Shown here piece after piece: positions 3,298 to 45,734 of a stretch of DNA of 64,000 bases. The stretch is from Oscillospiraceae bacterium (GTDB lineage Bacteria > Bacillota > Clostridia > Oscillospirales > JAAYXM01), in NCBI GenBank assembly GCA_017435965.1, contig JAFSEA010000042.1, positions 12,250 through 76,249 on the forward strand, read 5' to 3'. The notes below the pieces were generated by a model. That model was not told the DNA's origin and did not search any database. It worked only from the letters and a program-made list of their open reading frames with translations. Position numbers and translations under genes: made by a program. Each line of letters begins with the position of its first letter. Position 1 is the first letter of the stretch.

Positions 3298-4636
3298 AAT
3301 TAAAAATACGATAAAACAGAATAATATGTTGAGCTGTGGAGAGCGAATTCTTGTGGCTTTCTCCGGTGGTGCAGACTCCGTAGTTTTATTGGACGTGCTT
3401 GTTGCTTTGTCAGAAGAGCTTGGGATTTCTGTGTGTGCGGCACATCTGAATCATATGCTGCGTGGAAAAGATGCCGACGCTGATGCGGAATTTACACGCA
3501 GACGTTGTGAGAAATACGGAATCGGCTACATATCCGAGTGCGTTGATGTGGCGGCATATGCAAAGGAAAAAGGTGAGTCAACAGAGCTTGCGGCGCGCAA
3601 TGTGCGCTATGATTTTCTGCACAGGGCAAAAGCTCATTTTTCTGCAGACAGGATTGCAACGGCACACAATGCAAACGACAATCTCGAAACCATACTTTTC
3701 AATGTATCCCGTGGAAGCGGCATTGACGGACTTTGCGGCATTCCGCCCGTGAGGGACGATATAATCCGTCCGCTTATAGAAACCACAAGAGCTGAAATAG
3801 AAAATTACGCAAAAGAAAAAGAACTTTCTTTCCGCACGGATAAAACAAATGCAGAAACCGTCTATTCAAGAAACAAGTTGCGTCATATGGCACTTCCCGT
3901 GCTTTCGGAGATAAATCCGATGGCTGTGGAAAACGCCGCCCGTATGTCAAGACTTCTCCGTGAAGATGCAGAGTTTTTGAAAAATGCGGCAATAAATGTC
4001 GCAAAGGAAATATCGCTTTCGGAGCACGTCTGCAAACGTTTTGATATGGTAAAACTTTCCGATGGAATGTTTGGCAGGGTTTGTGAGCTTTTTGCCAAAA
4101 GAGCTTTGAGAAAAGATAACTATACTCTTGAATATAAGCACATCTCATCTATAAGAAAGCTTGCTTCCGGGAACAACCCGTCCGGAGAAATATATCTTCC
4201 GGATGAGCTCTGTGTGCGATGTGAATATGAAAAGCTTGTTTTTGAAAAGAGGGAGGAAAGCAGAGCGCTTTCGGTGCAGAATCTTAATTTCGGAGAAAAT
4301 ATCTTCGGAGAATATAAGATTTTTCTGGAAAAAACAAAAAAAAATGGAAAAGTTAATAATTCCGTAAATACTTTTTTTGTTTTGTGTGATAAAATTAGCG
4401 GTGGTTTGTTTGTGCGTCCGAGAAAAGAAGGCGACAGGATCAAATTGTCGGCACGACCGGGAAAGAGCATTAAAAAATTGCTTATTGATGAGCATATTCC
4501 CAAAAACGTGAGGGATAAAATTCCGATAATAGCGGATGAAGAAAAGGTTTTGGCTTTGTTCGGATTCGGAACAGATGAAAGTGTTATACCGGAAAACGGG
4601 CAGGAATGCTTTGAAATCCGGATAGAGAAATTATAA
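3287..4636 (+). CDS. tilS: tRNA(Ile)-lysidine synthetase TilS
   Basis: PP-loop motif ILVAFSGGADS and tilS-hpt-ftsH synteny. Start is uncertain (3251, 3287 or 3326); 3287 gives the usual ~20 aa before the PP-loop and overlaps the dnaB stop by 11 nt. Confidence 0.85.
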   Translation: MVTKIKNTIKQNNMLSCGERILVAFSGGADSVVLLDVLVALSEELGISVCAAHLNHMLRGKDADADAEFTRRRCEKYGIGYISECVDVAAYAKEKGESTELAARNVRYDFLHRAKAHFSADRIATAHNANDNLETILFNVSRGSGIDGLCGIPPVRDDIIRPLIETTRAEIENYAKEKELSFRTDKTNAETVYSRNKLRHMALPVLSEINPMAVENAARMSRLLREDAEFLKNAAINVAKEISLSEHVCKRFDMVKLSDGMFGRVCELFAKRALRKDNYTLEYKHISSIRKLASGNNPSGEIYLPDELCVRCEYEKLVFEKREESRALSVQNLNFGENIFGEYKIFLEKTKKNGKVNNSVNTFFVLCDKISGGLFVRPRKEGDRIKLSARPGKSIKKLLIDEHIPKNVRDKIPIIADEEKVLALFGFGTDESVIPENGQECFEIRIEKL

Positions 4637-4642
4637 TAAGAT

Positions 4643-5200
4643 TTGGGAGTGGGGATTTTGGAAAAGGATATAGCAAGAGTTCTTTTGACGGAAGAACAAA
4701 TAAAAGAAAAGGTAAAATTCCTCGGAAGTGAAATAAAACGTGCATACGGAGATAAAAATCCGCTTATATTATGTATATTGAAAGGTTCGCTCATTTTCAC
4801 GGCTGATCTTGTCCGTTGCCTTGATTTCCCCTGCACGATTGATTTTATGCAGGCTTCAAGTTATGGCTTGGGTTCAGAAACAACGGGAAAACTGAAAATT
4901 AAAAAGGATATGGATACCGATGTTCACGGACGCGATGTAATAATCGTAGAGGATATCCTTGACACGGGAGTTACTCTTTCAAATCTCATCCCGGAGTTAA
5001 AAAACAGGGGTGCAAGAAATGTAGTGCTTTGTGTACTTTTAAACAAACCCGAGCGTCGTCGCATAGAAGTGAAAACCGACTTTGTCGGATTTGAAATAGA
5101 AAACGAATTTGTGGTAGGCTATGGTCTGGACTATGCGGAAAAATACAGAAACTTACCATATGTGGGGATTTTGAAACCCGAAGTGTATGAAAATAATTAA
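4643..5200 (+). CDS. hpt: Hypoxanthine(-guanine) phosphoribosyltransferase
   Basis: PRPP-binding motif VIIVEDILDTGVTL and a C-terminal VVGYGLDYAEKYRNLPY motif. An in-frame alternative TTG start at 4658 follows GGGAG. Confidence 0.92.
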   Translation: MGVGILEKDIARVLLTEEQIKEKVKFLGSEIKRAYGDKNPLILCILKGSLIFTADLVRCLDFPCTIDFMQASSYGLGSETTGKLKIKKDMDTDVHGRDVIIVEDILDTGVTLSNLIPELKNRGARNVVLCVLLNKPERRRIEVKTDFVGFEIENEFVVGYGLDYAEKYRNLPYVGILKPEVYENN

Positions 5201-5219
5201 GATAAGGATGTGACATCAA

Positions 5220-7160
5220 GTGAAAAAGAAAAGCAGCTTCAGGGACATAGTGCTTTTTCTGATGATAATTGCAATGCTTGTCGCTGTGGCATCTTTCCTT
5301 TTTGAGGAAAGGGCTCCGGAAAAGATAAAGTATTCGGATGTGGTGCATCAGATTAAGGACAAAAATGTAGAAAAAGTCCTGATAGACGGTGAGGAAATTC
5401 TCAGGCTGACGTTGAAGCAACCTCACGGAGGAATGAAAGAGATAAGCTTTGACCTGTCTGATCAGTATATCCGCACAGAGTTCCAGCGCGATTGCGTGCC
5501 CCTTATTTTAGAACAGGTTAAAGAAGACCATATTGAATATGATATTCTTCCTGCAGAAGGTTCTCCCTGGTGGATGATGTTTTTGCCCTACATTATAGTT
5601 ATCGTTGTCATTGGAATCATGTGGTTCTTTATGTATAGCAAGGCAGATGGCGGAGCAGGTAAGGCAATGCGCTTCGGAAAAGCACGCACAAAGCTTGGAA
5701 GCGATGAGAAAAAGAAGGTAACTTTTGCCGATGTTGCAGGTGCAGAGGAAGAAAAGCAGGAGCTTTCGGAAATAGTTGATTTTCTGAAAGAACCGAAAAA
5801 GTTCACCGAGATTGGTGCAAGAATCCCCAAGGGCGTTCTTCTTGTAGGCCCTCCGGGAACAGGTAAAACATATATCGCGAAGGCAGTTGCAGGTGAGGCG
5901 GGAGTTCCGTTCCTCTCGATTTCCGGTTCCGACTTTGTTGAGCTTTATGTCGGTGTCGGTGCATCCCGTGTACGTGACCTTTTTGATCAGGCGAAAAAAT
6001 CTGCCCCTGCAATCATATTTATTGATGAAATTGATGCCGTCGGTCGTCACCGTGGCGCAGGCTATGGTGGTGGTCACGATGAACGTGAACAGACCCTCAA
6101 CCAGCTCCTTGTTGAGATGGACGGTTTCGGAAATAACGAAGGCGTTATCATAATTGCGGCAACAAACCGCCCGGATATCCTTGACCCGGCACTTATGCGC
6201 CCGGGAAGATTTGACCGCCAGGTTTATGTCGGACTTCCGGATCTCAACGATCGTGAAAAGGTTCTTGAAATCCACGCAAAAACAAAGAAGCTCGGAAACA
6301 ATGTTTCTCTCCGTGATGTTGCAAGATCAACAAGCGGTTTCTCACCGGCTGACCTTGAAAATCTTCTCAACGAGTCTGCACTTCATGCGGCTCGTCGCGG
6401 AGATACAAGTATCAACCAGAAGGATATTGAAGAGTCGATGCTCAAGATAATCGCAGGTCCTGCAAAGAAAGCAAAGGTAAGAAGTAAGCAGGTCAATAAG
6501 CTTACTGCATACCACGAAGCAGGTCATGCCATCGCAATGAAATTCCTTCCCACGCAGGACCCTGTACATCACATTTCAATTCTGCCCCGAGGTATGGCAA
6601 ACGGATATACCATTTCTTTGCCGCGTCAGGATGTTTATTCCGTGTCAAAGAAGGAAATGGAAGAGCAGATCGTCTCACTCCTCGGTGGACGTGTTGCGGA
6701 AAAGCTTGTGCTTGAAGACATTTCCACAGGCGCATCTCACGACTTGAAGCGTGCATCACAGATTGCACGCGATATGGTAACAAAATATGGTATGAGTGAA
6801 AAGCTTGGTCCCGTGAGCTTCGCAGAGGATAACGGAGAAGTATTCCTCGGACGTGATTTTGCATCAAAACGCACTTATTCCGAAGCTGTTGCAAGTGCTA
6901 TTGACGAAGAAGTTCGTGCAATTATCGAAGCGGCATACAGTAACTGTGAAAAGATTCTCACGGATAATATGGATAAGCTTCACGAGGTTGCAAACTTCCT
7001 CCTTGAAAAAGAGACTATGGAAGCAAAAGACTTCTACGCAGTATTCGGTGAAGATGTTCCGCCTTCAATTGCGGAAGAAACCGAAGATGCTCCTGCAGAA
7101 AATGTAAACGCAGAGGAAAACACGGAAGCAACACAGGAAGAAAACAAGGAAAACGAATAA
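5220..7160 (+). CDS. ftsH: ATP-dependent zinc metalloprotease FtsH
   Basis: Two N-terminal TM segments, AAA Walker A GPPGTGKT, Walker [12 protein letters not shown] region, HEAGH zinc motif. GTG start. Confidence 0.97.
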
Positions 7161-7513: not shown

Positions 7514-8161
7514 TTACTTTATTTCTTCAAATTTCTTTATCCATTCTTTTGTTATGAGAGCGTGACCCGAAGTGTTGGGATGAACTCCGTCGGTGAGCCA
7601 GTAGGAGGGATTTTCAGGATTATAGAGAGTATCAAACTTTTCCTGAAGCGGGATGAAGGGAAGATTATATTTTTCAGAAACTCTCTTTGCGGCAGCTGCT
7701 TTGTCAAGAACATCTGCGCGGAAAGCAGGATAAATCTCTTCGCCGCTTGCATTTTCGGATGTGCCGTTTCCTTTGAGAACAAAGGGTTCAAGAATCATTA
7801 TCTTAAGGTTTGGCAGAGCTTTTTGAAGCTCCTCAATAAGCATTGAATATACCTTTTCAAACTTATCTGTTGCAACGCCGTTGGGACTTTCCGAGAACTC
7901 ATGCCACACATCGTTTACTCCGATTAAAAGACTCATATAATCGGGTTTGAGATTTATGATATCACGCTTCATTCTGGCATAGATATCCACGATGCGATTG
8001 CCTGATATTCCGCGGTTTATAAACTCATATTCCTCTGGATAAGCAAGTCCGAGCTCTCCCGAGACCATTGTTGCATATCCGTGACCTCTCCAATCATTGC
8101 GCTCATAGGAACGGCCTGCATCCGTTATTGAGTCGCCTTGAAAAAGAATTACTTTCGACAT
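7514..8161 (-). CDS. SGNH/GDSL-family hydrolase (lipase/acylhydrolase-like)
   Basis: N-terminal block I motif ILFQGDSITD, block III GVND, C-terminal DGVHP (Asp-x-x-His). Confidence 0.85.
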   Translation of the reverse strand: MSKVILFQGDSITDAGRSYERNDWRGHGYATMVSGELGLAYPEEYEFINRGISGNRIVDIYARMKRDIINLKPDYMSLLIGVNDVWHEFSESPNGVATDKFEKVYSMLIEELQKALPNLKIMILEPFVLKGNGTSENASGEEIYPAFRADVLDKAAAAKRVSEKYNLPFIPLQEKFDTLYNPENPSYWLTDGVHPNTSGHALITKEWIKKFEEIK

Positions 8162-8299
8162 TATTCATTTCTCCTTATTACTTGAATTACAGTAATTATA
8201 AAACAGAAGAAAACAAAAATCAAGACAAGTCATTGCTTTTTACGTAACATACACATCAAATCCGCAAAATATAATGTATAAGAAAGGGGAGACTTATCT

Positions 8300-11260: not shown

Positions 11261-11728
11261 ATGAAAAAGTGCAGAAAAGGCGGATTTCTCAAATCCTTTG
11301 GATATGCCGCCCGTGGAGTGCTTTACGCAATAAGAAATGAGCGAAATTTCAGGGTGCATCTGTGCGTGACCTTGTATGTGCTTGTCTTTTCAATTATCGG
11401 AGCACCGCCACGGGACGATGTTGCACGCCTTTTTCTGTGCATTGGTCTTGTTATGAGTGCAGAGCTTGTAAATACTGCCCTTGAAAAGATGTGCGATACC
11501 GTGACAGAGGAAAAGAACGAGAAAATTAAAATAGCAAAGGATACGGCGGCAGGTGCTGTGCTGATATCCGCAATTATGGCGGCTGTGGTGGGACTTATAA
11601 CATTCCTTAACCCACCTGTGTTTAATCGTGTTGTGAAAACTCTTTCTGATATGCCATATATTGCGGCACTTATAATAATCAGCATACCTCTTGCAGTTTG
11701 GTTTATTGTGGGACGGAAGAAGAAATGA
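11261..11728 (+). CDS. dgkA: Diacylglycerol kinase / undecaprenol kinase family membrane protein
   Basis: 155 aa with 3 TM segments. Conserved NERNFRVH and AELVNTALE motifs. ybeY-dgkA synteny. Confidence 0.85.
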   Translation: MKKCRKGGFLKSFGYAARGVLYAIRNERNFRVHLCVTLYVLVFSIIGAPPRDDVARLFLCIGLVMSAELVNTALEKMCDTVTEEKNEKIKIAKDTAAGAVLISAIMAAVVGLITFLNPPVFNRVVKTLSDMPYIAALIIISIPLAVWFIVGRKKK

Positions 11729-13062
11729 AAAAGTCAGATGTGTATACTGTGAAAATTGAAGGCTACACCTCCGAGGGTGCAGGTATTGCGAGAATTGACG
11801 GAATGGCAGTTTTCGTGCCTCAGGCGCTTCGGGGAGAAACCTGCGAAATAATGATACTTAAAGTGGAAAAAAGCTTTGCATATGCAAAGCTTATTCGTGT
11901 TATTGAAGCTTCTCCCGAAAGGGTGGAAAGCCGCTGTGAGCACTATCCCAAATGTGGCGGTTGTTCCATGTGGCATATGTCCTATGAGGAAGAGCTTCGG
12001 GTAAAAGAAGACCACGTTCGTTCCTGTATTGAAAGAATAGCAAAGACTTCCGCACCTGTTCTTCCGATTATCGGCGGAGACGAAACAACACGCTATCGAA
12101 ATAAGGCACAATACCCGGTTGGAAAGGATACCACAAGCGGATTTTATCGCACCCGAAGTCACGATATAGTCCCCTCGAAGACCTGCCTTATACAGAGCGA
12201 GCTTGCAGATAAAATCCGTGGCGTTGTACATAAATGGCAGAGGGAGAATAACATTCCTTCCTATGACGAAAAGAGCGGAAAAGGAATTCTCCGTCATATC
12301 TATGTGCGAAGCGGGAAAGGCGGCGCAGTTCTCTGCCTTGTGGCAACGAAAAAGCCGGATGAAACGGAAAGTCTTATAAAGCTTATAGAAAAGGAATGTC
12401 CGGAGGTCTGCGGAATCGTTCTTAACATAAATAAGAAAATCACAAACGTAATCCTCGGTGATAAGTATATAACCCTTTGGGGAAAAGGCTTTGTGGAGGA
12501 CGAGCTGTCGGGACTCTGGTTTGAAATATCCCCTGCGGCATTCTATCAGGTAAACCGTGCCCAGACCGAAAAGCTCTACGATATAGCCGTAAGTCTTGCA
12601 ACGGAAAACGGTGCCAAAACAGCACTTGATCTCTATTGCGGAATAGGAACGATAACGTTGAGCCTTGCAAAGAAAATGGACAAGGTAATCGGAGTTGAGG
12701 TTGTGCCTCAGGCAATCAAAGATGCAAAACGGAATGCAAAGCTCAACGGAATGGAAAATGCAGAATTCATCTGTGCCGATGCAAGCGAGGCGGCAAAGAT
12801 GCTCGCCGACCGTGGTGAAATGCCGGATGTAATAGTGGTAGACCCACCGAGAAAAGGTCTCACTCCCGAAGGGATATCGGAAATAAAAAGAATGAACCCC
12901 AAAACAATAGTATACGTCTCCTGCGACCCGGCAACGTTAGCACGAGACCTAAAGATATTTGAAGAAGACGGAAGCTATAAGACACAAAGTGTACAACCTG
13001 TAGATATGTTCCCAAGGACAAAACACGTGGAAAGTGTGGCAAAGCTCACGCTTTCCAACTAA
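11725..13062 (+). CDS. rlmD: 23S rRNA (uracil-C5)-methyltransferase, RlmD/RumA family
   Basis: N-terminal TRAM-like domain, Fe-S Cys cluster CEHYPKCGGCSMWH, SAM motif DLYCGIGT and catalytic VSCDP. ATGA overlap with the dgkA stop. Confidence 0.9.
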   Translation: MKKSDVYTVKIEGYTSEGAGIARIDGMAVFVPQALRGETCEIMILKVEKSFAYAKLIRVIEASPERVESRCEHYPKCGGCSMWHMSYEEELRVKEDHVRSCIERIAKTSAPVLPIIGGDETTRYRNKAQYPVGKDTTSGFYRTRSHDIVPSKTCLIQSELADKIRGVVHKWQRENNIPSYDEKSGKGILRHIYVRSGKGGAVLCLVATKKPDETESLIKLIEKECPEVCGIVLNINKKITNVILGDKYITLWGKGFVEDELSGLWFEISPAAFYQVNRAQTEKLYDIAVSLATENGAKTALDLYCGIGTITLSLAKKMDKVIGVEVVPQAIKDAKRNAKLNGMENAEFICADASEAAKMLADRGEMPDVIVVDPPRKGLTPEGISEIKRMNPKTIVYVSCDPATLARDLKIFEEDGSYKTQSVQPVDMFPRTKHVESVAKLTLSN

Positions 13063-13158
13063 GTTTGCCTTGCGGCAAGTAGCGAATTGTCCGAACAAGG
13101 AAGTTGATTCTCACAAAGCATTAATTAAGAAATCTAATATGTAAAAGGAATGATAGAT

Positions 13159-15678
13159 ATGACAAAAATAATCGGAAAAAGTATTTATGCAATTTTAATT
13201 ATGATTTTTGTATTTGCAATTGCAGGCTGTAGCAATGGAAACGACTCATTTGATAGCAGTTCAAAGGCAAAATTAGAAGAAAACAAGTCACAAGAAAAAA
13301 CAGTGGATTTTTCGGTTGAAGAATTAAAGACCGAGAAAGGTATAGAACGTTTTAAAGAATATTACGAAGAATGTAAAAAAGATGGAACAATTTCCACTGA
13401 AGCAACACCGGAAGAGATTGTAGTAGCATATATCAATACCGCTGAACTTGATGCCGGAATCAATGAAATTAATGATAAATATATTGATGATAACGGATAT
13501 ATAAAGTCGGAAAGTGTGTTGGATGTTCTTGATGAAATATATAAATACACTCAACAACTTGAGAATGAAGGAAAGGTTTCGGGAGTTCAGTATAATTACG
13601 ATGATATGAATATATGCATTGTAACAAATGATGGGTTTAGATATATGTACGCTCCACGTATTGAAGGATTAATGAGTGGAGGTGGAGATTTAGATGTTTT
13701 GGCTCTGAATAACGCAGAAAATTATGAATATGATATGACTGCCAATATTGAATCGATTACTCTTAATCATATCAATAAGGCAGGTGAACATATAGAAGAT
13801 GAATTAGATGTAAATTTATATCAATATGAAGATAAATCCACGCTTGGAATTAATAGGATAAAAACATTAATTAAAAATCTTGACTCCAAGCAAAGACACG
13901 TTATTCTTTGGCGAGGACATGGAAATGTATGGGACTATGCAAGCCGCGAAAATGTACCTGCACAATCTACTTCGGCTACGAGAGAGTCTGTTTTTTGGGT
14001 GGATACCGATGGCAAACTGGCTGTTTTTATGATGTATTATGATGATCTTGTGGAAGGGAATGTTATTGTATCGAGTGGTTCATATGCCCTTGCACCGGGA
14101 TTTTTTACCAAATATATGAGCAGTGTTGAAGGAGGAATATTCTATACAGGTGCTTGCTATTCAGCTGCTGACGGCGGTGATATGTCAAATGCGATTTTAA
14201 GCAAAGGATTTGAGTGCTATTTTGGGTCGACAGATTCAATATCAGTTGGTTATTCAGATCTTATGATGTTGTCTGTTATAGAGAATCTGTGTAAATACGA
14301 AGATGAATTCTCAAGAAAACCTGATGCATCTGCCGTAAAAGAAGAATATGTTTCAAGTGAAAGAAGGACAATTACAGCTCAAAAGGCACTTCGTCTTTCA
14401 CAAGAAGATAAGGGTACTGTGGATATTCGACACAACTTGCGGGATGTTTTATTGAATTTACCTGAAGTGCTTAAAGTTAAGGTAAGGAATACCCAAGTTG
14501 TAATAAGAGGTAATGCCTCGGCACGATTAATAGGTTCAGAAGAACTTGATTTGTCTTTTGCATGGGTTGAAGATATTGGAAATAATCCTAATAATTTGTG
14601 GCAAAGTAGTGATACCCTTGCGTTTGATGATGATTATATTTATTATGCATCAAACGAGAATTTATACAGAGTAAAGTATAATGGTGAGGATAATGAGAAG
14701 ATTGCAAGCAAAGTTGAAGCAACATTAAATGTATATGACGGATACATTTATTCGTCTGATTGTGGAACGGCGAGTAATCCTTATGTTAAAATCAAACGCA
14801 TAAATTCCGAAACAAAGGCTGAGGAAATATTATTTGAGATGGCGGGAACAAAATGGAGAGAGGATTATTACGTTGAGTCAATGCTTGCATACGATGGATA
14901 TCTGTTTTGTACAATAATTGATGAAGGAAACAGAGAAAAAACTTATATATATGCAATAGATTTAGATGATCTATCATATTACCAAATACATTATGAGCCG
15001 GCTGCAAGAAGCACAGAATTTACTGTCGATGATGCAGGGAATCTCTATGCCATAATGAAGACAGATGGTTCCAATGCAAACTTAAGAAAGTTTTTGAAAG
15101 TAAGCATGGATGATTTGAGAAACAATGCGAACGATGTTTCTTTGGAGGAAACTTTATTTATGGAAGAGTTTGTGGGAGAAACTAATTTGGGTAATTACGC
15201 AAATGTTATATTGGGTTCAGGGGGGATGCTTCGAAATCTTTCGAATTCAGATTCATACGGTGAATATTATTATGGTAAAGTTGATGCACAGCAAAAGAAA
15301 TGGTATGCCAGCGGTAATAGTTATCCCGAATTAAATTCCAATGATGCAGACGCTGATAAGCATACAATAGTTACAGCGAGAAATCGAAGATATTATCTTG
15401 ATGGAAGCGTTGTGTTTTTTGTAACAGACGTATTATATACAAAATCGAATATAATCGGTGACGATCAAAATAATGTGCCTATATACATATGTAGTGATAT
15501 GGATTTTGCAAATCCTCAAAAAATCGGGACAATTTACGGTATGAACCTTTTTGATAATGGAGGGAATCTTGTTGGTGTTCATGATGGAAAAGTTTATGCT
15601 ATAGAAAAGAAAGGGACAGAAATAAATCTTGTTATTATTGATCAGAAAGGAGTTGTAAATCGCTTGACAATTTCGTGA
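13159..15678 (+). CDS. Large hypothetical lipoprotein: putative clan-CD (gingipain/C25-like) cysteine peptidase region plus C-terminal DUF5050-type beta-propeller-like repeats
   Basis: Signal peptide with lipobox FAIAGC. HVILWRGHG ... GGIFYTGACYSAADGG ... YFGSTDS follows the clan-CD motif order. Repeated YIYY/YDGYIY/YDGYLF/NLYAI/KVYAI strands. Visibly AT-rich coding sequence. ATG 13159 has AAGGA 9 nt upstream (ORF track 13150). Confidence 0.75.
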   Translation: MTKIIGKSIYAILIMIFVFAIAGCSNGNDSFDSSSKAKLEENKSQEKTVDFSVEELKTEKGIERFKEYYEECKKDGTISTEATPEEIVVAYINTAELDAGINEINDKYIDDNGYIKSESVLDVLDEIYKYTQQLENEGKVSGVQYNYDDMNICIVTNDGFRYMYAPRIEGLMSGGGDLDVLALNNAENYEYDMTANIESITLNHINKAGEHIEDELDVNLYQYEDKSTLGINRIKTLIKNLDSKQRHVILWRGHGNVWDYASRENVPAQSTSATRESVFWVDTDGKLAVFMMYYDDLVEGNVIVSSGSYALAPGFFTKYMSSVEGGIFYTGACYSAADGGDMSNAILSKGFECYFGSTDSISVGYSDLMMLSVIENLCKYEDEFSRKPDASAVKEEYVSSERRTITAQKALRLSQEDKGTVDIRHNLRDVLLNLPEVLKVKVRNTQVVIRGNASARLIGSEELDLSFAWVEDIGNNPNNLWQSSDTLAFDDDYIYYASNENLYRVKYNGEDNEKIASKVEATLNVYDGYIYSSDCGTASNPYVKIKRINSETKAEEILFEMAGTKWREDYYVESMLAYDGYLFCTIIDEGNREKTYIYAIDLDDLSYYQIHYEPAARSTEFTVDDAGNLYAIMKTDGSNANLRKFLKVSMDDLRNNANDVSLEETLFMEEFVGETNLGNYANVILGSGGMLRNLSNSDSYGEYYYGKVDAQQKKWYASGNSYPELNSNDADADKHTIVTARNRRYYLDGSVVFFVTDVLYTKSNIIGDDQNNVPIYICSDMDFANPQKIGTIYGMNLFDNGGNLVGVHDGKVYAIEKKGTEINLVIIDQKGVVNRLTIS

Positions 15679-15885
15679 GTATATAAACAGTAACAATCAA
15701 TATAGCAAGGTGCCAAAATGAGTGGCATAGAAGTGACAAAACAAATTTCTGATTCACAAACGTAAATGTTGCATGGATTGCAGAAAGAATACGAGTTGGA
15801 ATAAGGAAAAAGAATATGGTTTCAAGTGAAAGTTGGAGGGTATAAATGTTTTTGAAGAAAAGCAGATTTTCTCGCATACATAAAC

Positions 15886-16023
15886 ATGGCAGTTGGTAAT
15901 AAAGGAAACAAAATATATCATACATATGGATGCGAGCACCTTGATCTTTCATCTTTTTGGGCGTACAATGAGGCACAAGTTACAAACAATGATGAATACA
16001 CAAAGTGTCAATATTGCAATTAA
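15886..16023 (+). pseudogene. 45-codon ORF or gene remnant with a KIYHTYGCEHL...YTKCQYCN motif (YH-x3-C ... C-x2-C metal-binding-type C-terminal module)
   Basis: My own translation of 15886-16023: MAVGNKGNKIYHTYGCEHLDLSSFWAYNEAQVTNNDEYTKCQYCN. There is no RBS. Short out-of-frame ORFs lie upstream, which suggests decay. Confidence 0.3.
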
Positions 16024-16052
16024 ATACAAGTGGAAAAAGGATGACTAAACCA

Positions 16053-16937
16053 ATGAAAAAAGAATATTTATATGCAGGGTTTGCAATTCTTTGCTGGTCT
16101 ACCATTGCGACTATTTCAAAGCTTCTTCTCGGTAGCCTTGACAGTATGCAGATAACCTTTATAAGCTCTGCTTTTGCCTTTGTCTTTTTGCTTATTCTCA
16201 ACATTTTCAAAGGCAATATGAAAATGTTTAAAATGTATAAGGTGCGTGAGTATCTTGTTATGTCGGGAATAGGAATCCTCGGAATATTCATATACCACCT
16301 TCTTCTCTATATGGGCATTGACTGTATGGATGCATCCCAGGCATTTATCATAAATTATCTCTGGCCCATAATGTCGGTGCTTTCTGCCTGCATTATACTG
16401 AAAGAAAAAATGACTTTGCGAAAAAGCATTGCAATCCTTCTTTCTTTTGCCGGCGTTATAATAGTCACGGCAAACGGAAATCTCTTGAGCATCGGGCGTG
16501 ACACACTTACGGGAGCATTATATTGCATAATTGCCGCCGTGTCCTATGGTCTCTTTTCTGCGCTTAATAAGAAAAAAGACTACGACAAGTATTTCAGCAT
16601 GATGGTGTTTTACTTTGCGGCAACCGTTGTTTCACTTGTGTATATAATTGCCACAAAGAGCACCTTCACCCTTGATGCGATGCAGGTGGCAGGACTTGCC
16701 TGGATGGGTATATTCACAAACGCAATAGCCTTCACCTTCTGGGCGATTGCGATTAAAATTGGGGACACGGCAAAGGTTTCAAACCTTGCTTACATAACTC
16801 CGTTTTTGTCGCTTGTGTGGACAACCCTTGTTCTCAAAGAGGACTTCAACCCCTATTCCCTGATAGGACTTTCGGTAATAGTCATAGGTATATTCATTCA
16901 GCTTAAAGACAAAAAAGAAATAAAGACACGAGGATAA
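16053..16937 (+). CDS. EamA/DMT-superfamily transporter
   Basis: About 10 TM segments in two EamA-like halves. Alternative starts at 16041 and 16005; 16053 has AAGGA 11 nt upstream. Confidence 0.8.
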   Translation: MKKEYLYAGFAILCWSTIATISKLLLGSLDSMQITFISSAFAFVFLLILNIFKGNMKMFKMYKVREYLVMSGIGILGIFIYHLLLYMGIDCMDASQAFIINYLWPIMSVLSACIILKEKMTLRKSIAILLSFAGVIIVTANGNLLSIGRDTLTGALYCIIAAVSYGLFSALNKKKDYDKYFSMMVFYFAATVVSLVYIIATKSTFTLDAMQVAGLAWMGIFTNAIAFTFWAIAIKIGDTAKVSNLAYITPFLSLVWTTLVLKEDFNPYSLIGLSVIVIGIFIQLKDKKEIKTRG

Positions 16938-39784: not shown

Positions 39785-41368
39785 ATGAAAAAGAAAAAGC
39801 AAGGTTTTTTTTACGGTGCCGCAATTCTTGCATTTGCGGGAGTGGCCGTAAAAGTGATAGGCGCGTGCTATAAAATACCTCTCGGAAATCTTCTCGGACC
39901 TGTTGGTATGGCTGATTTCTCGATAGCTTATAACATATACACGCTTTTGTTCGTTCTTTCCACGGCAGGAATACCTTCTGCAGTATCGAAAATGGTTTCG
40001 GAAGCGGAATCAAAAAAAGATGACGGATATGCTTTTCGGATATATAAAGTATCTTGCTTCACTTTTGCGGCAGTAGGGATGGCAGGATTTTCTGTAATGT
40101 TCTTCGGCGCAGATATGCTGGCTGAACTTATGGGAAGCAAAAGTGCCGCCCTTTCGATAAAGGCGATTTCTCCTGCTGTGATGTTCGTTTGCATTTCTGC
40201 GATAAACAGAGGCTATTTTCAGGGTAAATCAAATATGTATCCAACAGCTGTATCGGAAATTCTTGAAGCCTTGGGAAAGTTGCTTTTCGGAATTGCGGCG
40301 GCGATATATATGAGGTTTTTAGGCTTTGACAGTGCGGTAATAAGCGCGGGCGCGATTTTTGGAGTGAGTGTCGGAGCTTTTCTCTCTGCTTTGTTTTTCT
40401 GCTTTTGTCGGGAAGGAAAGAAGGATAAGGTGACTGTGTCTGATGAGTCGGAGGGAAAGATAATACGAAAACTCTTTTCTCTTGCAATTCCGATTACCGC
40501 AGGTGCGGCGATAATAAGTGTCGGAAATGTGGTGGACAGCGCTTTGGTGATGAAGTTGCTTCAGGGCAGCGGATTTTCCGAATATCGTGCAAAATGGCTC
40601 TTTGGAGCATATAACTATGCGGTAACTCTTTTTAATTTGCCCTCTGTATTTACAACCACTCTTGCGATATCTGCCATTCCTGCGATATCCTTTGCTTTTG
40701 CAAAAGGCGATAAGTCGGAAGTAAATAAACTCGCAAATTCCGCAATGACCATCGGTATGACGGTTGCGTTTCCTGCGGCCTTCGGGCTTCTGGCTCTGTC
40801 TGAAGAAGTGATGTCACTCCTTTATGGTAGAAATGTAAGTTCGCTCTGTCTGGAGGCTTCATCGCTGATTCTCGGATATCTTTGTTTTGCGATTCCGTTT
40901 CTCACGATTGTTACGGTAACAAATTCAATTCATCAGTCTTTGGGAAGTGTTCATATACCGGTGATTTCAGGTGCACTTGGTGTTGCTGTGAAGATAGTGT
41001 CAAATATTTTGTTTGTAAGCCGTGTGGAAATAAATATTCTCGGTGCCGCAATCAGCACGGTTCTATGCTACGGAACCATTGCCGCAATCAATGTGGGGAC
41101 ACTCAAACGATATGATTTTATAAAAATTGAAATCACCAAAGTTTTTATTAAACCTTTCCTGCCGGGAGTCGTGTCTTATGTTGCTGCAGAGACCGCTTCG
41201 AGTTTAACAAGAACTGCGTTTGGATTCTGTTTTTCGACAGTTTTCTCGGTTTTTGCAGGTTTTTTGATGTGCCTTGTGACCTTTTTTGCGGTGGGTATAG
41301 TGCAGGTGAAAGGCAAAAGTGTGTATTTCGGTGGGGAAAGTATATCTAAATTTTTAAATAATGATTGA
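39785..41368 (+). CDS. MOP-superfamily flippase (polysaccharide biosynthesis protein; YabM/SpoVB/MurJ-like)
   Basis: 527 aa with about 14 TM segments. N-terminus AAILAFAGVAVKVIGACYKIPLGNLLG. Positioned before mazG like B. subtilis yabM. Confidence 0.75.
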   Translation: MKKKKQGFFYGAAILAFAGVAVKVIGACYKIPLGNLLGPVGMADFSIAYNIYTLLFVLSTAGIPSAVSKMVSEAESKKDDGYAFRIYKVSCFTFAAVGMAGFSVMFFGADMLAELMGSKSAALSIKAISPAVMFVCISAINRGYFQGKSNMYPTAVSEILEALGKLLFGIAAAIYMRFLGFDSAVISAGAIFGVSVGAFLSALFFCFCREGKKDKVTVSDESEGKIIRKLFSLAIPITAGAAIISVGNVVDSALVMKLLQGSGFSEYRAKWLFGAYNYAVTLFNLPSVFTTTLAISAIPAISFAFAKGDKSEVNKLANSAMTIGMTVAFPAAFGLLALSEEVMSLLYGRNVSSLCLEASSLILGYLCFAIPFLTIVTVTNSIHQSLGSVHIPVISGALGVAVKIVSNILFVSRVEINILGAAISTVLCYGTIAAINVGTLKRYDFIKIEITKVFIKPFLPGVVSYVAAETASSLTRTAFGFCFSTVFSVFAGFLMCLVTFFAVGIVQVKGKSVYFGGESISKFLNND

Positions 41369-41414
41369 AAAATTTAAATATTTTGAAAAAAGTACTTGCA
41401 GGAGAGTGATAAAT

Positions 41415-42143
41415 ATGATAAATTTTATAAGGAAAGAAAAATATGGTTTCCGGGATCTTGTCGAGATAACAAAGATTCTCCGATCCGATGAGGGATGTCC
41501 CTGGGATCGTGAGCAGACTCACAAGAGCATCAGAATGAATTTTGTGGAAGAAGTTTATGAGGCGTGCGAGGCTATTGATAATGAAGATGCCGAACTTCTT
41601 CTTGAGGAACTCGGGGATGTTCTTGCTCAGGTGGTTTTTCACGCAGAGCTTGAAAGTGAAGTCGGAAGATTTGATATCGATGATGTGGCCGATGGGGTCT
41701 GTAAAAAATTCATTCTGCGTCATCCCCATGTTTTCGGAGATGTAACAGCGGATACTTCCGATGAAGTTCTCGAAAATTGGGACGATATAAAGCGGAAGGA
41801 AAAAAGCCACAACACCCATTTTTCTGCTATGGATTCGGTTGCAAGAAGTCTTCCTGCTCTTATGCGGGCGGAGAAGCTTCAAAGTAAGGCGAAAAAAGCA
41901 GGCCTTTTGCAGAAGGATATATCGGAGCTTTCCGATTCCATAAAAAAAGAGCTTGATTTGGGCAATGATATGAATGTAGGAAATATATTGCTCGATGTTG
42001 TGAGGATTTCTCGCCTTTTGGGGGTTAATCCGGAGCAGGAGCTTGATAGCCGCAATGAGAAGTTTCTTGCGGAGTTTAAAAAGCTTGAAGATGAAGACGG
42101 AGAGCTTTCGGAGCTTCTCTCTCGTTTCTCGGACAAGCTTTGA
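41415..42143 (+). CDS. mazG: Nucleoside triphosphate pyrophosphohydrolase MazG (YabN-like)
   Basis: CPWDREQTHKSIRMNFVEEVYE and LEELGDVL (EExxE/D) motifs. ATG 41415 avoids overlap with the flippase gene (ORF track 41361). Confidence 0.85.
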   Translation: MINFIRKEKYGFRDLVEITKILRSDEGCPWDREQTHKSIRMNFVEEVYEACEAIDNEDAELLLEELGDVLAQVVFHAELESEVGRFDIDDVADGVCKKFILRHPHVFGDVTADTSDEVLENWDDIKRKEKSHNTHFSAMDSVARSLPALMRAEKLQSKAKKAGLLQKDISELSDSIKKELDLGNDMNVGNILLDVVRISRLLGVNPEQELDSRNEKFLAEFKKLEDEDGELSELLSRFSDKL

Positions 42144-42220
42144 TTATTTAATTGCTAAAACGGTGGGGAATTTTTTACTTCACGCCTTTTAGATAAAAAC
42201 AAAATAGGAGGCAAAATCAG

Positions 42221-42496
42221 ATGAACAAAACAGAATTGGTAAATGCAGTTGCTGAAAAGGCAGCACTTTCCAAGAAGGACGCTGAGAAGGTTATCAACGC
42301 AACAGTTGATGCTATCACAGCTGCTCTTGTAGCAGGCGACAAGGTTCAGCTCGTTGGCTTTGGTGCATTCGAGGTTAAGACTCGTGCAGCAAGACAGGGT
42401 CGCAACCCGCGCACAAAAGAGACAATTACCATTCCTGCATCTAAGAGCCCGGTATTCAAGGCCGGCAAGGCTCTTAAGGACGCTGTCGCGAAGTAA
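42221..42496 (+). CDS. hup: DNA-binding protein HU
   Basis: 91 aa. MNKTELVNAVAEKA...GFGAFEVKTRAARQGRNPRTKETITIPASKSPVFKAGKALKDAV is the canonical HU sequence pattern. Confidence 0.97.
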   Translation: MNKTELVNAVAEKAALSKKDAEKVINATVDAITAALVAGDKVQLVGFGAFEVKTRAARQGRNPRTKETITIPASKSPVFKAGKALKDAVAK

Positions 42497-42608
42497 TTAA
42501 GCTTAAGCTATGTTATTGCCGGAGACAGGTTTTTTTCTGTCTCCGGGTAGCATATCCTCTTCACAGCACAAAACTTAATGCCTGTTTTAGGGCAAGCGAA
42601 GGTTTTAT

Positions 42609-42851
42609 ATGAGAATAGACAAATACCTTAAGGTTTCAAGACTTATAAAGAGAAGAACGGTCGCAAATGAAGCTTGTGACAATGGCAGAGTCTCAGTAAA
42701 CGGAAAGCCGGTGAAGGCATCTTATGATGTTAAGGTTTCCGATATTATTGAGATTTCTTTTGGTACTCGAACACTCAAGATTCGTGTCCTCGCCGTGAAT
42801 GAGCATATGACCAAGGACGAGGCGCACACTATGTATGAAGAAGTGCGCTGA
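42609..42851 (+). CDS. yabO: S4-domain RNA-binding protein (YabO/Hsp15-like)
   Basis: 80 aa. MRIDKYLKVSRLIKRRTVANEACDNGRVSVNGK S4 motif. Synteny with yabP-yabQ. Confidence 0.85.
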   Translation: MRIDKYLKVSRLIKRRTVANEACDNGRVSVNGKPVKASYDVKVSDIIEISFGTRTLKIRVLAVNEHMTKDEAHTMYEEVR

Positions 42852-42934
42852 TTTTTATGTAGACCTATAAATTTGAGAATAAAACTCAGAAGCGACAAAT
42901 ATACTTATCACAAGAAAAGTATTGGAGGTCGCTT

Positions 42935-43219
42935 ATGCAGTTTGAAGATAAAAGTGTTTCAAAAGATGTTCCGCAGAACATCATAATCGAAAATCGATTC
43001 AGAATGAGTATCTCCGGAGTTTCGGATGTTGAAAATTTTGATGAAAGTATTGTGCAGCTTTCAACAAATCGCGGACTTTTAACTGTGAAAGGTTCGGGAC
43101 TTCATATAGAAAGATTGAATCTCGAAACGGGAGAACTTGCGGTTGAGGGCACAATTGACGGACTGGAATATAGTGAGCTTATAGCAGGCGGCAGTTTCTG
43201 GTCACGCCTTTTTAAGTAG
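42935..43219 (+). CDS. yabP: Sporulation protein YabP
   Basis: 94 aa. The NIIIENRFRMSISGVSDVENFDESIVQLST...LTVKGSGLHIERLNLETGEL pattern is typical of YabP. Confidence 0.85.
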   Translation: MQFEDKSVSKDVPQNIIIENRFRMSISGVSDVENFDESIVQLSTNRGLLTVKGSGLHIERLNLETGELAVEGTIDGLEYSELIAGGSFWSRLFK

Positions 43220-43231
43220 CGGTGCTCTGTT

Positions 43232-43714
43232 GTGGCGAATTTAGTTTCTTTGCAAACTTTAGAATTCTTTTATTCTGCACTTATGGGAGTTTGCCTTGGT
43301 GCTTTGTTTGACTTATTCAGAGTGCTCAGGTTTTTTTCGCCCGGTAAAAGAATTCTTACGGTGGTAACGGATATACTGTTCTGGAATGTTGCAATAATTA
43401 TTCTTTTTGCATTTGTACTTACTGTTTCAAATGGCAGAATGCGATGGTATGTGCTTTTAGGCACTTTTTGCGGAGGCTTTGTTTACATATCGGCTGTAAG
43501 CGAAATAGTGTTCAGAGTTTGCGTGTCGGTCGTATTCTTAATTAAAAAGTTTTTATGGATGATAACACATCCTGTCTATCTTGTTTTGAGATGGATGTGG
43601 CGTGGGGTAAAGCAAAGCTATCGGGGAAGAATGAAGAAGATTAAGGAAAGGAGAGAGTCAGTTGCAGAAAAAAGAGAAGAGCAAGAAAAAGAGAAGACGC
43701 AATTTGATGCCTAA
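43232..43714 (+). CDS. yabQ: Spore cortex biosynthesis protein YabQ
   Basis: 4-5 TM segments. The N-terminus FFYSALMGVCLGALFDLFRVLR is typical of YabQ. GTG start. Synteny supports the call. Confidence 0.8.
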   Translation: MANLVSLQTLEFFYSALMGVCLGALFDLFRVLRFFSPGKRILTVVTDILFWNVAIIILFAFVLTVSNGRMRWYVLLGTFCGGFVYISAVSEIVFRVCVSVVFLIKKFLWMITHPVYLVLRWMWRGVKQSYRGRMKKIKERRESVAEKREEQEKEKTQFDA

Positions 43715-43991
43715 AATAATTCTTGCGGTATTTGTTGTTTACGCATCTGTCACTCTTGTTCAGAATCAAGTTGAGGCAAATAGGAGTGCTTCGGAAGTTG
43801 AAAAGACTGAAATGTCCATATCCGGTGAGAAGCTCAAGAAGATAGAACTTGAAGAAAAGTATGCAGACCTTGAACAACTGTTCGGGAAAGAATCAAGCGA
43901 TGAGTATATGGAGTATATGAAGAAAAAAGCGGAAGAACAAGGTTTTGTTGATTCGAATGCAATAATATTTGAAGATGTTTCAAAGAATTAG
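43662..43991 (+). CDS. divIC: Septum formation initiator (DivIC/FtsB family)
   Basis: Basic N-terminus, single TM segment (IILAVFVVYASVTLV), then coiled coil. Start is ambiguous: TTG 43662 (after AAGGAAAGGAGAG, 53-nt overlap with yabQ) or ATG 43707. Confidence 0.7.
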   Translation: MQKKEKSKKKRRRNLMPKIILAVFVVYASVTLVQNQVEANRSASEVEKTEMSISGEKLKKIELEEKYADLEQLFGKESSDEYMEYMKKKAEEQGFVDSNAIIFEDVSKN

Positions 43992-44030
43992 GCTTTCTTT
44001 TAAAATACAAAGGAGGACACAGGTAAGGGT

Positions 44031-44435
44031 ATGGGACTTGAGATAGGTGCGGTATGTAACGGGAAGGTTACATCAATCACAAAATATGGTGCTTTTGTAG
44101 CTCTGGGAGATGGGAAAAGCGGAATGGTACATATTTCCGAAATTTCTCATACATATGTAAACGATATAAATGAACATTTGAAAAACGGTCAGGATGTCAA
44201 GGTTAAAGTTATCGGAATTGACGAAAACGGAAGGATAAGTTTATCTATTCGCAAGGCTGAGCCGCGTCCGGAACGTCCGCAAACGAATTTTGCACCAAAG
44301 TCCTCTCCGAAAGAGAATGTGGAACTTTCTTTTGAAGATAAGCTCAAGCAGTTTATGCAAGATAGTGACAGCAAGATTTCCGGAATAAAACAGTATTCAG
44401 ACAGACGTACGAATACTCGCCGTCCGAGACGATAA
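44031..44435 (+). CDS. yabR: S1-domain RNA-binding protein (YabR-like)
   Basis: S1 fold motif GKVTSITKYGAFVALGDGKSGMVHISEIS and a basic C-terminal tail. Follows divIC as in B. subtilis. Confidence 0.88.
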   Translation: MGLEIGAVCNGKVTSITKYGAFVALGDGKSGMVHISEISHTYVNDINEHLKNGQDVKVKVIGIDENGRISLSIRKAEPRPERPQTNFAPKSSPKENVELSFEDKLKQFMQDSDSKISGIKQYSDRRTNTRRPRR

Positions 44436-44441
44436 TAAAAC

Positions 44442-44489
44442 AACACCGATGATGTGTGGATATACATCATCGGTGTTTGCATTTTTTTT
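44442..44489 (+). terminator. Intrinsic terminator after yabR
   Basis: 14-bp stem 44442-44455/44464-44477 followed by tgcatttttttt. Confidence 0.8.
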
Positions 44490-44539
44490 CTTTTTCGCAA
44501 TATATATGTTAATGGATATTTTGCGGACGGAGGAAAAAG

Positions 44540-45700
44540 ATGAAAGGAAAGAAAAACAATTTTTTTATTATTGTTATTTTCGCGGTAGTGTCTGTCTGTG
44601 TTATGGTAAGAGTGCTCTCTTACTTTGGGGCAGAAGAAAAAATTATGAAATATATGTCAGAACTGTCGGAGAATGAAAGCTTTGTGAAATATGCGGTTGC
44701 AGGGCAGACTCCGTTGGTTGAAGGTGATACCGGAAAGTTTTTTTTGAATATGGCTTTTTCCGAGACTGCCGTGGATGTGGGAGATGAGGATGAAGCAGAA
44801 AATGAAGTATATGAAGAAACTGTGGTTGAGATTGAAGTTGAATCCGGACAGCCGGAACGCGAAGAGCTTACGGTGTGGGAATATACCATAGGAGGAGAGA
44901 AAACAGAGAAAACTTATCCCATAGAAAATATAACCATAAAGCCCGTAACATCGAAAGGATATGTTGTTTATGAAAATGTATGGGTGAAGAATGACAGCAC
45001 AAAGGGAATAGATATCAAATGGTTGCTTAATTCAAAACTTCCATTTAAGCTTGTGGGAGACGGGCCCCATGTACTTATAATTCATACTCACGGAAGTGAA
45101 AGTTATTTACCGCAGGGAAGGGATTTCTACACACTTACAGATGTGGAGAGAACTGAGGATAAACGCTACAATGTGATAAGTGTCGGAGATGAACTTGAAA
45201 ATGTGTTGAAGGAAAATGGAATATCGGTAATTCATGACAGAAATATATACGACAGCCCATCATATAACGGTTCTTACACAAGGGCTCTGGATGCCATTGG
45301 AAAGACGCTTAAAGCAAACCCGACCATCAAAGTGGTTATCGATTTGCATCGAGATGCCATGACAAATGCCGATGGTGTTAAATACAGAACTGTAGCAAAC
45401 GTAAACGGAAAACAGATGGCACAGATGATGCTTGTTATGTCAACGGGCGAAAGCGGGCTGCCACATCCTGACTGGGCGGAAAACTTAAAACTTGCCGTCA
45501 AACTTCAAAATGTTATGTCGGAGAAATATCCCGGGATTATGCGGCCTGTGAATCTGAGAAAAGAACGTTTCAATATGCACGCAACAACGGGATCAATGCT
45601 TGTTGAAGTGGGAACAAGCGCAAATTCTCTTTCTGAAGCGAAGGAATCGGTAAAACTTCTGGGAAAGGAACTTGCAGAGATACTCAAAAAGGCAAAATGA
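44540..45700 (+). CDS. spoIIP: Stage II sporulation protein P
   Basis: N-terminal TM segment. VLIIHTHGSESY motif and VIDLHRD, typical of the SpoIIP amidase/peptidase family. Confidence 0.85.
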   Translation: MKGKKNNFFIIVIFAVVSVCVMVRVLSYFGAEEKIMKYMSELSENESFVKYAVAGQTPLVEGDTGKFFLNMAFSETAVDVGDEDEAENEVYEETVVEIEVESGQPEREELTVWEYTIGGEKTEKTYPIENITIKPVTSKGYVVYENVWVKNDSTKGIDIKWLLNSKLPFKLVGDGPHVLIIHTHGSESYLPQGRDFYTLTDVERTEDKRYNVISVGDELENVLKENGISVIHDRNIYDSPSYNGSYTRALDAIGKTLKANPTIKVVIDLHRDAMTNADGVKYRTVANVNGKQMAQMMLVMSTGESGLPHPDWAENLKLAVKLQNVMSEKYPGIMRPVNLRKERFNMHATTGSMLVEVGTSANSLSEAKESVKLLGKELAEILKKAK

Positions 45701-45734
45701 GAGCGTGCCTCACATAAAGAGAGACACGCCTCTT

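Follow-up and report, generated by a model that had tools for sequence, protein, structure and literature searches.

Within a 64-kb stretch of DNA from an Oscillospiraceae bacterium (the window, analysed over its whole length), a segment of low guanine-plus-cytosine (GC) content between an rlmD-type gene and a transporter gene encodes an 839-residue protein. This is probably a lipid-anchored surface protein, acquired horizontally, in which a clan-CD cysteine peptidase of a new family is fused to a beta-propeller. The protein is built in four parts, which are a lipoprotein signal, a tether, an N-terminal module (N-module, residues 88-392) and a C-terminal module (C-module, residues 465-842), with residues counted throughout in an 842-residue numbering that begins at the upstream in-frame ATG at 13150. 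The N-module is best seen as a new family in an already established clan, joined to a known propeller from a domain-of-unknown-function (DUF) family. The gene and its parts, some of them defined on AlphaFold2 (AF2) models, are the following.

13144-13149, + strand: probable ribosome-binding site AAAGGA, 9 nt before the ATG at 13159, supporting the 839-residue start given in GenBank.
13159-15678, + strand: gene for the 839-residue lipoprotein, from the list of open reading frames (ORFs), identity to a deposited protein and selective constraint.
13159-13230, + strand: lipoprotein signal peptide, made up of MTKIIGKS (n-region), IYAILIMIFVFA (h-region) and the lipobox I-A-G-C, with Cys27 encoded by TGT at 13228-13230.
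13231-13410, + strand: Ser/Asp/Lys-rich tether of low complexity and the first helices (AF2) leading to the N-module (residues 28-87).
13411-14325, + strand: N-module, an unannotated clan-CD-like (gingipain/C25-like) domain of probable cysteine-peptidase type, from about 130 relatives, conservation, weak family matches, AF2 and Foldseek.
13918-13920, + strand: CAT codon of His257, the proposed catalytic His in V-I-L-W-R-G-H-G, conserved and directly after a strand (AF2).
14155-14157, + strand: TGC codon of Cys336, the proposed catalytic Cys in G-G-I-F-Y-T-G-A-C-Y-S, conserved and directly after a strand (AF2).
14326-14541, + strand: inter-module linker (residues 393-464), with a low predicted local distance difference test score (pLDDT) and the weakest constraint.
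14542-15675, + strand: C-module, a DUF5050-type beta-propeller, from stand-alone relatives, PF16472 matches, AF2 and Foldseek.

Counted from its first ATG the ORF spans 13150-15678 on the + strand, encodes 842 residues and is the sole long ORF of the segment. The ATG at 13159 is the likelier start on sequence grounds because AAAGGA lies 9 nt upstream of it, and its 839-residue product is identical (100%) to a deposited protein from an Oscillospiraceae metagenome-assembled genome (P0001, 'hypothetical protein IJO09_03240' in GenBank) that was seen on 5 contigs. An earlier reading of this DNA made from its letters without database searches (the sequence-only reading) had placed the ORF at 13159-15678, and this is the same coordinate as that of the GenBank protein. 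Four independent contigs from metagenomes, belonging to the same organism as the window, show an identical gene arrangement.

Direct reading of the N-terminus finds a positive n-region, an h-region and a lipobox of the form [LVI][ASTVI][GAS]C, as the sequence-only reading had proposed for this lipoprotein signal (IFVFAIAGCSNG, residues 19-30). The residues G26-C27-S28 are invariant across 3 homologues, and residues 14-48 give a weak match to EexN-lipoprotein. The division of the remainder into modules comes from the distribution of its relatives. A word-indexed search of 5.8 billion proteins returned just three full-length relatives, and an exhaustive HMMER (phmmer) scan of 1.84 billion representatives gave 233 matches that form two non-overlapping sets. 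In the first set residues ~88-392 match internal regions of about 130 large multidomain proteins, and in the second residues ~465-842 match about 20 proteins of about 400 residues. Both regions occur together in the phmmer scan only in the three close homologues, which are also the sole relatives that cover the linker. No family was found when the whole protein was compared with Pfam, NCBIfam and PDB sequences. Against a homologue of 60% identity the ratio of nonsynonymous to synonymous substitution (dN/dS) is about 0.17 for the gene, about 0.15 for the N-module, about 0.11 for the propeller, about 0.3 for the tether and, as the highest value, about 0.5 for the linker, all of these figures being rough since synonymous sites are saturated. 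Both modules are under purifying selection.

The N-module itself has no match in Pfam, NCBIfam or PDB sequences, either as a single sequence or through profiles, which accords with the remark in the sequence-only reading that the family could not be placed. Profile searches of PDB sequences with two N-module alignments (A2 and A4) gave nothing significant, an NCBIfam scan of subfamily members gave noise only, and a Joint Genome Institute metagenome scan with alignment A1 gave no matches. In an alignment of 123 N-module segments with about 25% mean identity, the most conserved columns are His257 (123/123), Gly258 (122/123) and Cys336 (122/123, the remaining one being a gap), so that the dyad is lost in no member of the alignment. 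These are followed by Gly353 (121), Gly256 (116), Pro169 (115), Trp254 (114) and Phe318 (113). The family consensus reads hhhW-x-G-H-G around the His and hhh-x-G-[AST]-C-x-S-x-x-D around the Cys; the position before Cys336 is A, S or T, the position two before it is Gly in 91 of 123 segments and the position five after it is Asp in 103 of 123. In clan CD the specificity of the endopeptidases is dominated by the P1 residue, and the Asp at Cys+5 and the Gly at Cys-2 are possible specificity determinants, the sole hint of this kind in the sequence. In the protein itself the two motifs lie at residues 250-263 (HVILWRGHGNVWDY) and 328-363 (GGIFYTGAC...GSTDS). The sequence-only reading had quoted them, together with the repeated strands YIYY, YDGYIY, YDGYLF, NLYAI and KVYAI (which fall within residues 496-818), at the places where they are found, and had described the His and Cys as gingipain-like in arrangement, which the near-invariance of the HG-type His and the AC-type Cys supports. 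It had put the distance from His to Cys at about 90 residues, and this needs correction to 79; across 122 relatives the spacing is 63-86 (median 71.5).

Two large subfamilies can be recognised by the motif that follows the Cys, KGAxAVVGN in one and KGFDAYxG in the other. The motifs of the first are IIW-x-GHGGY, LIYLG-x-C-x-SGKD and KGA-x-AVVGN. Among 60 full-length relatives the N-module is combined with S-layer homology (SLH) domains in 13, CarboxypepD_reg in 11, zinc ribbons in 7, BspA-type leucine-rich repeats (LRR_5) in 6, C-type lectin domains (Lectin_C) in 4, Big_2 in 3 and DUF5050 in 3 (best E 2.9e-34), and no Pfam model covers the shared N-module in any of these proteins. Where the loci of relatives were examined elsewhere, the genes are solitary among housekeeping genes. 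One SLH-bearing relative, WP_417344049.1, is found in the cultured gut bacterium Evtepia gabavorous (L017 8001-11968) and belongs to the P0049/P0166 cluster (226 members, 150 index blocks); it is labelled by NCBI merely 'S-layer homology domain-containing protein'.

An assignment of the N-module to clan CD is suggested in the first place by its motifs. The signature of the clan has been given as His-Gly...Ala-Cys, with each pair placed after a hydrophobic block (PMC12445089), and the dyad lies at the ends of strands beta3 and beta4 (PMC4357240). The motifs of the N-module family agree with this signature: the His precedes the Cys, H-G and A-C type motifs each follow a hydrophobic block, and both residues are conserved in homologues. 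Further evidence came from a permissive Pfam scan of 32 members of the KGAxAVVGN subfamily, in which Peptidase_C25 was matched by 12 (best E 4.3e-4) and CHAT by 3 (best 8.2e-5), with every other Pfam family being matched by one member at most. Peptidase_C25 and CHAT also top the list for an alignment of mixed subfamilies, and most of the Peptidase_C25 matches come from the KGAxAVVGN subfamily. The C25 matches are colinear in that the stretch from the Cys strand to the next strand (beta5) falls on positions ~250-327 of the C25 profile, and the longer ones reach back to profile position 187 or 222, across the His strand. What gives these matches weight is that they recur, that they are colinear and that they involve clan CD exclusively. 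The query itself has no Peptidase_C25 match at E<=10 and the best relative shown scores 17.8 bits against a gathering threshold of 23 bits, so the N-module is not filed as a C25 member. The sole peptidase among the marginal PDB profile matches is fragipain (5DYN, C11), at a non-significant E of 0.2, with FWS-HG aligned against FWrGHG of the family. A comparison of alignment A4 with human caspase-3 by hhalign was negative (probability 0.2); the caspase-3 sequence used was confirmed at 635 bits to PDB caspase-3.

The same dyad conservation and the same C25 and CHAT matches apply equally to a clan-CD enzyme that acts mainly as a transpeptidase or ligase of the PorU or legumain kind, whose task would be the processing or attachment of surface or S-layer proteins and not the degradation of external substrates. 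PorU, a member of the C25 family, has a sortase role. This possibility would fit with the SLH cell-wall anchors in 13 of the 60 relatives, with the gene immediately downstream of the Evtepia gabavorous relative, which encodes SLH and Phage_lysozyme2 domains (a wall hydrolase), and with the presence of PorZ, the partner of PorU, among the structures matched by the propeller. A conserved neighbouring gene for a substrate or for secretion is lacking in the contexts examined: those of P0002, P0003, P0012 and the Evtepia gabavorous protein have no common neighbour, save a four-helix-bundle gene and an ORF with a YHxxGC motif near P0003. A hydrolase and a transpeptidase are inseparable by sequence alone, and taken together we regard the transpeptidase as unlikely to be the main activity of the protein.

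A structural model bears on whether the fold is that of clan CD at all, in which an alpha/beta/alpha sandwich has a central sheet of order 2-1-3-4-5-6 (strand 6 antiparallel) and bears the dyad at the C-terminal ends of beta3 and beta4. The AF2 model of the N-module (residues 60-470) has a pLDDT of 78, with a core above 90, and consists of alternating strands and helices. In model numbering (window residue minus 59) a strand at 122-128 is followed by a helix, a strand at 164-168, a helix and a strand at 190-196 that leads directly to His198; two hairpins and helices then precede a strand at 269-274, Cys277, a helix, a strand at 297-299 and a final helix. In the model small beta-hairpins follow the His strand ahead of the next helix, and thus lie between the His and Cys strands, as has been described for caspases (PMC4357240). 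Clan-CD structures make up 23 of the top 50 Foldseek matches of the model, among them SAVED-CHAT, MALT1, metacaspase-4, caspase-7 and caspase-9, the caspase-like GSU0716 and the C11 structure 6n9j, and the template-modelling (TM) scores of the caspase-fold matches are 0.37 or lower.

It could be argued instead that the N-module is another alpha/beta sandwich, flavodoxin-like or vWA-like, in which His257 and Cys336 would serve as metal or cofactor ligands or form a non-proteolytic site, with the C25 and CHAT matches being convergent. Several results weigh on this side. Foldseek ranks a vWA-type pilin module first (E 2.5e-4) and has about 17 flavodoxin-like structures in its top 50, with TM-scores similar to those of the caspase-fold ones, and the C25 and CHAT matches in sequence are all sub-threshold, with none significant alone. 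The conserved columns, however, contain neither a motif of the metal ion-dependent adhesion site (MIDAS) type (DxSxS) nor a flavin-binding motif, and flavodoxin-like and caspase folds share a 2-1-3-4-5 sheet, so that a caspase-type fold would be expected to draw flavodoxin-like matches. Convergence moreover hardly accounts for twelve independent colinear matches to a single peptidase family when no vWA or flavodoxin family is matched, and this alternative appears quite unlikely. The vWA-type domain was also considered as a candidate in its own right and was rejected, there being no MIDAS-like conserved motif and no vWA Pfam match in the 73 members scanned.

The C-module is a seven-bladed propeller of the DUF5050 type, as judged from homology and a model, and the DUF5050/YWTD-type propeller named in the sequence-only reading was thus correctly recognised. 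The stand-alone relatives of this module (about 20 proteins of about 400 residues) nearly all have a lipobox and are lipoproteins of gut Clostridia. PF16472 is matched by 11 of these 20 relatives, the best at E 5e-12. At least three pass the gathering threshold of 27 bits, P0004 with 34.3 bits, P0006 with 38.7 and P0032 with 27.5. The C-module of the query has no Pfam match of its own and does not reach the PF16472 threshold directly; the link is made transitively, through relatives with E of 1e-67 to 1e-20 to the query. One relative is named 'DUF5050 domain-containing protein' by NCBI. An AF2 model made from a 20-sequence alignment has a pLDDT of 84 and a predicted TM-score of 0.86 and is all-beta with about 27 strands. 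Its best PDB match, and the top one in Foldseek, is 3s25 (E 8e-9, probability 1.00, TM 0.63). There are 404 Foldseek matches at E<=1e-3, and all of the 50 listed are propellers, including XusB (a ligand-binding lipoprotein), PorZ and the propellers of prolyl oligopeptidases. Besides the 3 close homologues, only a few other N-module proteins have a propeller fused to the N-module, and their propellers are divergent. In P0012 (L016 8001-10547) and in 3 of the 60 relatives the N-module is fused to a DUF5050 propeller that does not match the C-module of the query by phmmer, and the fusion of N-module and DUF5050 may have arisen more than once.

A reading of the protein as an adhesin or ligand-binding lipoprotein without catalytic activity, with a functional XusB-like propeller and an N-module that is only a scaffold or pseudo-enzyme, is very unlikely. 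In its favour, stand-alone DUF5050 lipoproteins without an N-module exist, the fold matches include ligand-binding propeller lipoproteins of the XusB type, and the partner modules LRR_5, Lectin_C and Big_2 are typical of adhesins. Against it, pseudo-enzymes are usually found to have shed catalytic residues in one lineage or another, whereas here the dyad is kept throughout and the flanking glycines are near-invariant, and the N-module is as constrained as the propeller on the rough dN/dS figures.

The most probable account of the protein, as a clan-CD peptidase with a propeller, is the following. The type-II signal peptide would lead to lipidation of Cys27 and so tether the protein to the outer membrane face of a monoderm gut Clostridium (Oscillospiraceae), where the flexible Ser/Asp/Lys-rich stalk would present the N-module as a catalytic domain of caspase/gingipain type. 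His257 would act as general base and Cys336 as nucleophile, each placed at the C-terminal end of a hydrophobic beta-strand, with an unusually long insertion of about 70-80 residues between the two strands. The C-terminal propeller, on its flexible linker, would recruit a substrate or ligand to the protease, and in other members of the family SLH, LRR, lectin or Ig-like modules would replace the propeller or the anchor. Horizontal transfer from a donor of lower GC would have brought the gene to its place behind rlmD. In this account the domain boundaries, the conservation, the propeller fold, the foreign composition and the pattern of presence and absence are demonstrated, while the clan-CD fold, the catalysis, the surface location and the part played by the propeller are inferred.

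The evidence for this transfer lies in the composition of the segment and in its absence from related genomes, and involves the following features.

11698-13062, + strand: left flank, an rlmD-type 23S rRNA (uracil-5) methyltransferase and core gene (Pfam TRAM and tRNA_U5-meth_tr; 47-78% identity in 7 genomes).
13081-16034, no strand: low-GC segment specific to this lineage, holding accessory cargo in the variable slot that separates rlmD from the EamA gene (blastn against L009, GC, absence in relatives).
15886-16023, + strand: 45-residue ORF with a YHxxGC...C-x-x-C motif in the AT-rich spacer (ORF list; called as a gene on contig L008).
16053-16937, + strand: right flank, an EamA-family transporter (Pfam EamA, E 3e-35), followed by MFS, GNAT and Dus genes (gene calls, same contig).

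The GC content of 13063-16040 is 0.345 and that of the rest of the window 0.430, which corresponds to z = -7.8 when compared with non-overlapping 3-kb windows (mean 0.429, standard deviation 0.011, minimum 0.396). Across 13000-16250 it drops from 0.43-0.47 to 0.33-0.38, the lowest in the 64-kb window. At third codon positions the GC content (GC3) is 0.25 in the ORF, while six genes nearby, among them phoH, rlmD, EamA, MFS and Dus, have values of 0.42-0.46. The sharp drop in composition that had been noticed by eye is therefore the strongest in the window, and the hand counts of G+C behind it (18 in the 60 nt from 13501 and 27 in the 60 nt from 12661) are exact. The + strand GC skew is 0.26-0.34 within 13000-16000 and about 0.1-0.2 in the flanks, so that the foreign segment differs in strand composition besides GC.

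Seven related genomes were retrieved with the rlmD protein (47-78% identity) and none of the seven encodes the 842-residue protein. Nucleotide homology to one of them, L009, stops at 13080 and restarts at 16035 by blastn, and the lineage-specific segment is therefore 13081-16034. In L009 the slot holds a TIGR02436 four-helix-bundle protein (7794-8234) and a 122-residue ORF, followed by EamA, MFS and Dus; in L011 it holds an HNH endonuclease with small zinc-ribbon ORFs (4042-5424 together) and a GDSL hydrolase, in L010 a GDSL hydrolase and a thioesterase-like ORF, and in L012 it is empty, with rlmD running directly into the MFS gene. The slot downstream of rlmD is a hot spot of gene flux in this clade (L009-L013). 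With its atypical composition and its absence from the locus in relatives the segment is a horizontally acquired islet, as the sequence-only reading had suspected. The neighbours of the closest homologue, P0002 (60% identity), on its own contig are likewise of low GC (0.37; GC3 0.27-0.30), which fits a lower-GC donor lineage. A mobility signature was looked for in the segment and its surroundings, and no integrase, transposase or tRNA was found; the only flanking repeats are short matches at chance level. The corresponding statement of the sequence-only reading, that no integrase, transposase or obvious flanking repeats could be seen, thus holds. No relatives of the C-module were found on viral contigs. 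Across the whole 64-kb window there is no tRNA and no Rfam match at gathering score, and signal scans of the segment and its vicinity found no noteworthy promoter or terminator.

A protein with 85% identity to the TIGR02436 protein of L009 is encoded at L002/L003 1-258, at the start of the contigs that bear the homologue P0003. This suggests either a location of P0003 in the variable slot after rlmD or joint movement of the cargo genes. The second-lowest GC in the window (0.39) is at about 43-45 kb, within 39785-47090, and nothing mobile is present there; from their translations we take the genes of this region to be SpoVB-like, MazG-like and SpoIIP-like genes and MnmE, and thus presumably ordinary sporulation and housekeeping genes.

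The AT-rich spacer after the gene had been described as holding decayed small ORFs. This description has to be qualified for the 45-residue ORF (…NKIYHTYGCEHLD…EYTKCQYCN), which has no Pfam or NCBIfam match. By tblastn it shows 37% identity over 32 residues (E 4e-4, in a tiny database) to the C-terminus (…TYHKFGCEKVY…KYTKC) of a membrane and coiled-coil ORF of 224/243 residues (L002/L003 168-932) that lies directly upstream of P0003, itself a homologue of 49% identity. The 45-residue ORF may be a real small zinc-ribbon-like gene, or it may be what is left of a gene that moves together with the one for the protease.

When clustered at 50% identity the family amounts to about 230 clusters, all from metagenomes or gut Clostridia. 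Neither Pfam nor NCBIfam recognises it, its members being annotated publicly as 'hypothetical' or at most as 'S-layer homology domain-containing protein'. Gut-bacterial clan-CD peptidases such as the gingipains, the clostripain-like C11 enzymes and fragipain are established effectors at the host-microbe interface. If activity is confirmed there would be a new clan-CD family for MEROPS, and DUF5050 propellers would gain a context as protease targeting modules; Evtepia gabavorous, as a cultured host (WP_417344049.1), offers a tractable organism for the family. A more far-reaching proposal, which we consider doubtful, takes the N-module as the founder of a ninth or tenth family of clan CD, specific to monoderm gut Clostridia. 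With its long insertion of 63-86 residues between His and Cys and its exchangeable targeting modules (propeller, SLH, BspA-LRR and C-type lectin), it would form a modular 'sortase/processing protease' system at the cell surface. If true, such a system would edit the wall or S-layer proteins of its own cell, or the glycoproteins of host or competitors, and would be an unannotated functional analogue of gingipain/PorU in Gram-positive bacteria.

Among known peptidases the gingipains (C25, PF01364) share with the N-module family the order of His and Cys, the H-G and [AST]-C motifs after hydrophobic strands and the following strand K-G-A-x-A-V-(V/I)-G-N-T, and they too are surface-exposed multidomain proteins with accessory binding domains. 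The short spacing of the gingipains, in which about 33 residues separate His from Cys, is not found in the N-module family, where it is 63-86. Gingipains are exported by the type IX secretion system with a C-terminal domain and belong to Bacteroidota, whereas the N-module proteins would be anchored by a lipobox or SLH domains in monoderm Clostridia. The clostripain family C11 (PmC11, fragipain 5DYN and thetapain) is linked to the N-module by the marginal profile match and the Foldseek match to 6n9j. In C11 enzymes an Asp two residues before the Cys accounts for Arg/Lys specificity, and the N-module family differs in having Gly at this position; no autoprocessing site was identified in the N-module. 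The spacing of the family also exceeds the 42-49 residues reported for caspase-7, PmC11, MARTX-CPD and YabG (PMC4357240, PMC12445089). CHAT (PF12770) gives weak recurring matches, all sub-threshold. CHAT proteins and the C14 caspases, metacaspases and paracaspases are intracellular signalling proteases, whereas the protein described here is a predicted extracytoplasmic lipoprotein.

The closest relation of the C-module is 3s25, the seven-bladed EUBREC_1955 of Eubacterium rectale, compared with which it is about 90 residues longer and has insertions in the later blades; it differs from DUF5050 proteins in being fused behind a peptidase-like module. Prolyl oligopeptidase/DPP4 and tricorn likewise combine a propeller and a peptidase in one chain, and their propellers are among the fold matches. 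These are serine peptidases in which the propeller gates an alpha/beta-hydrolase or tricorn core. In the protein described here, by contrast, the linker between the two modules is about 70 residues long, poorly conserved and, as predicted, flexible, which argues for recruitment by the propeller and not for gating.

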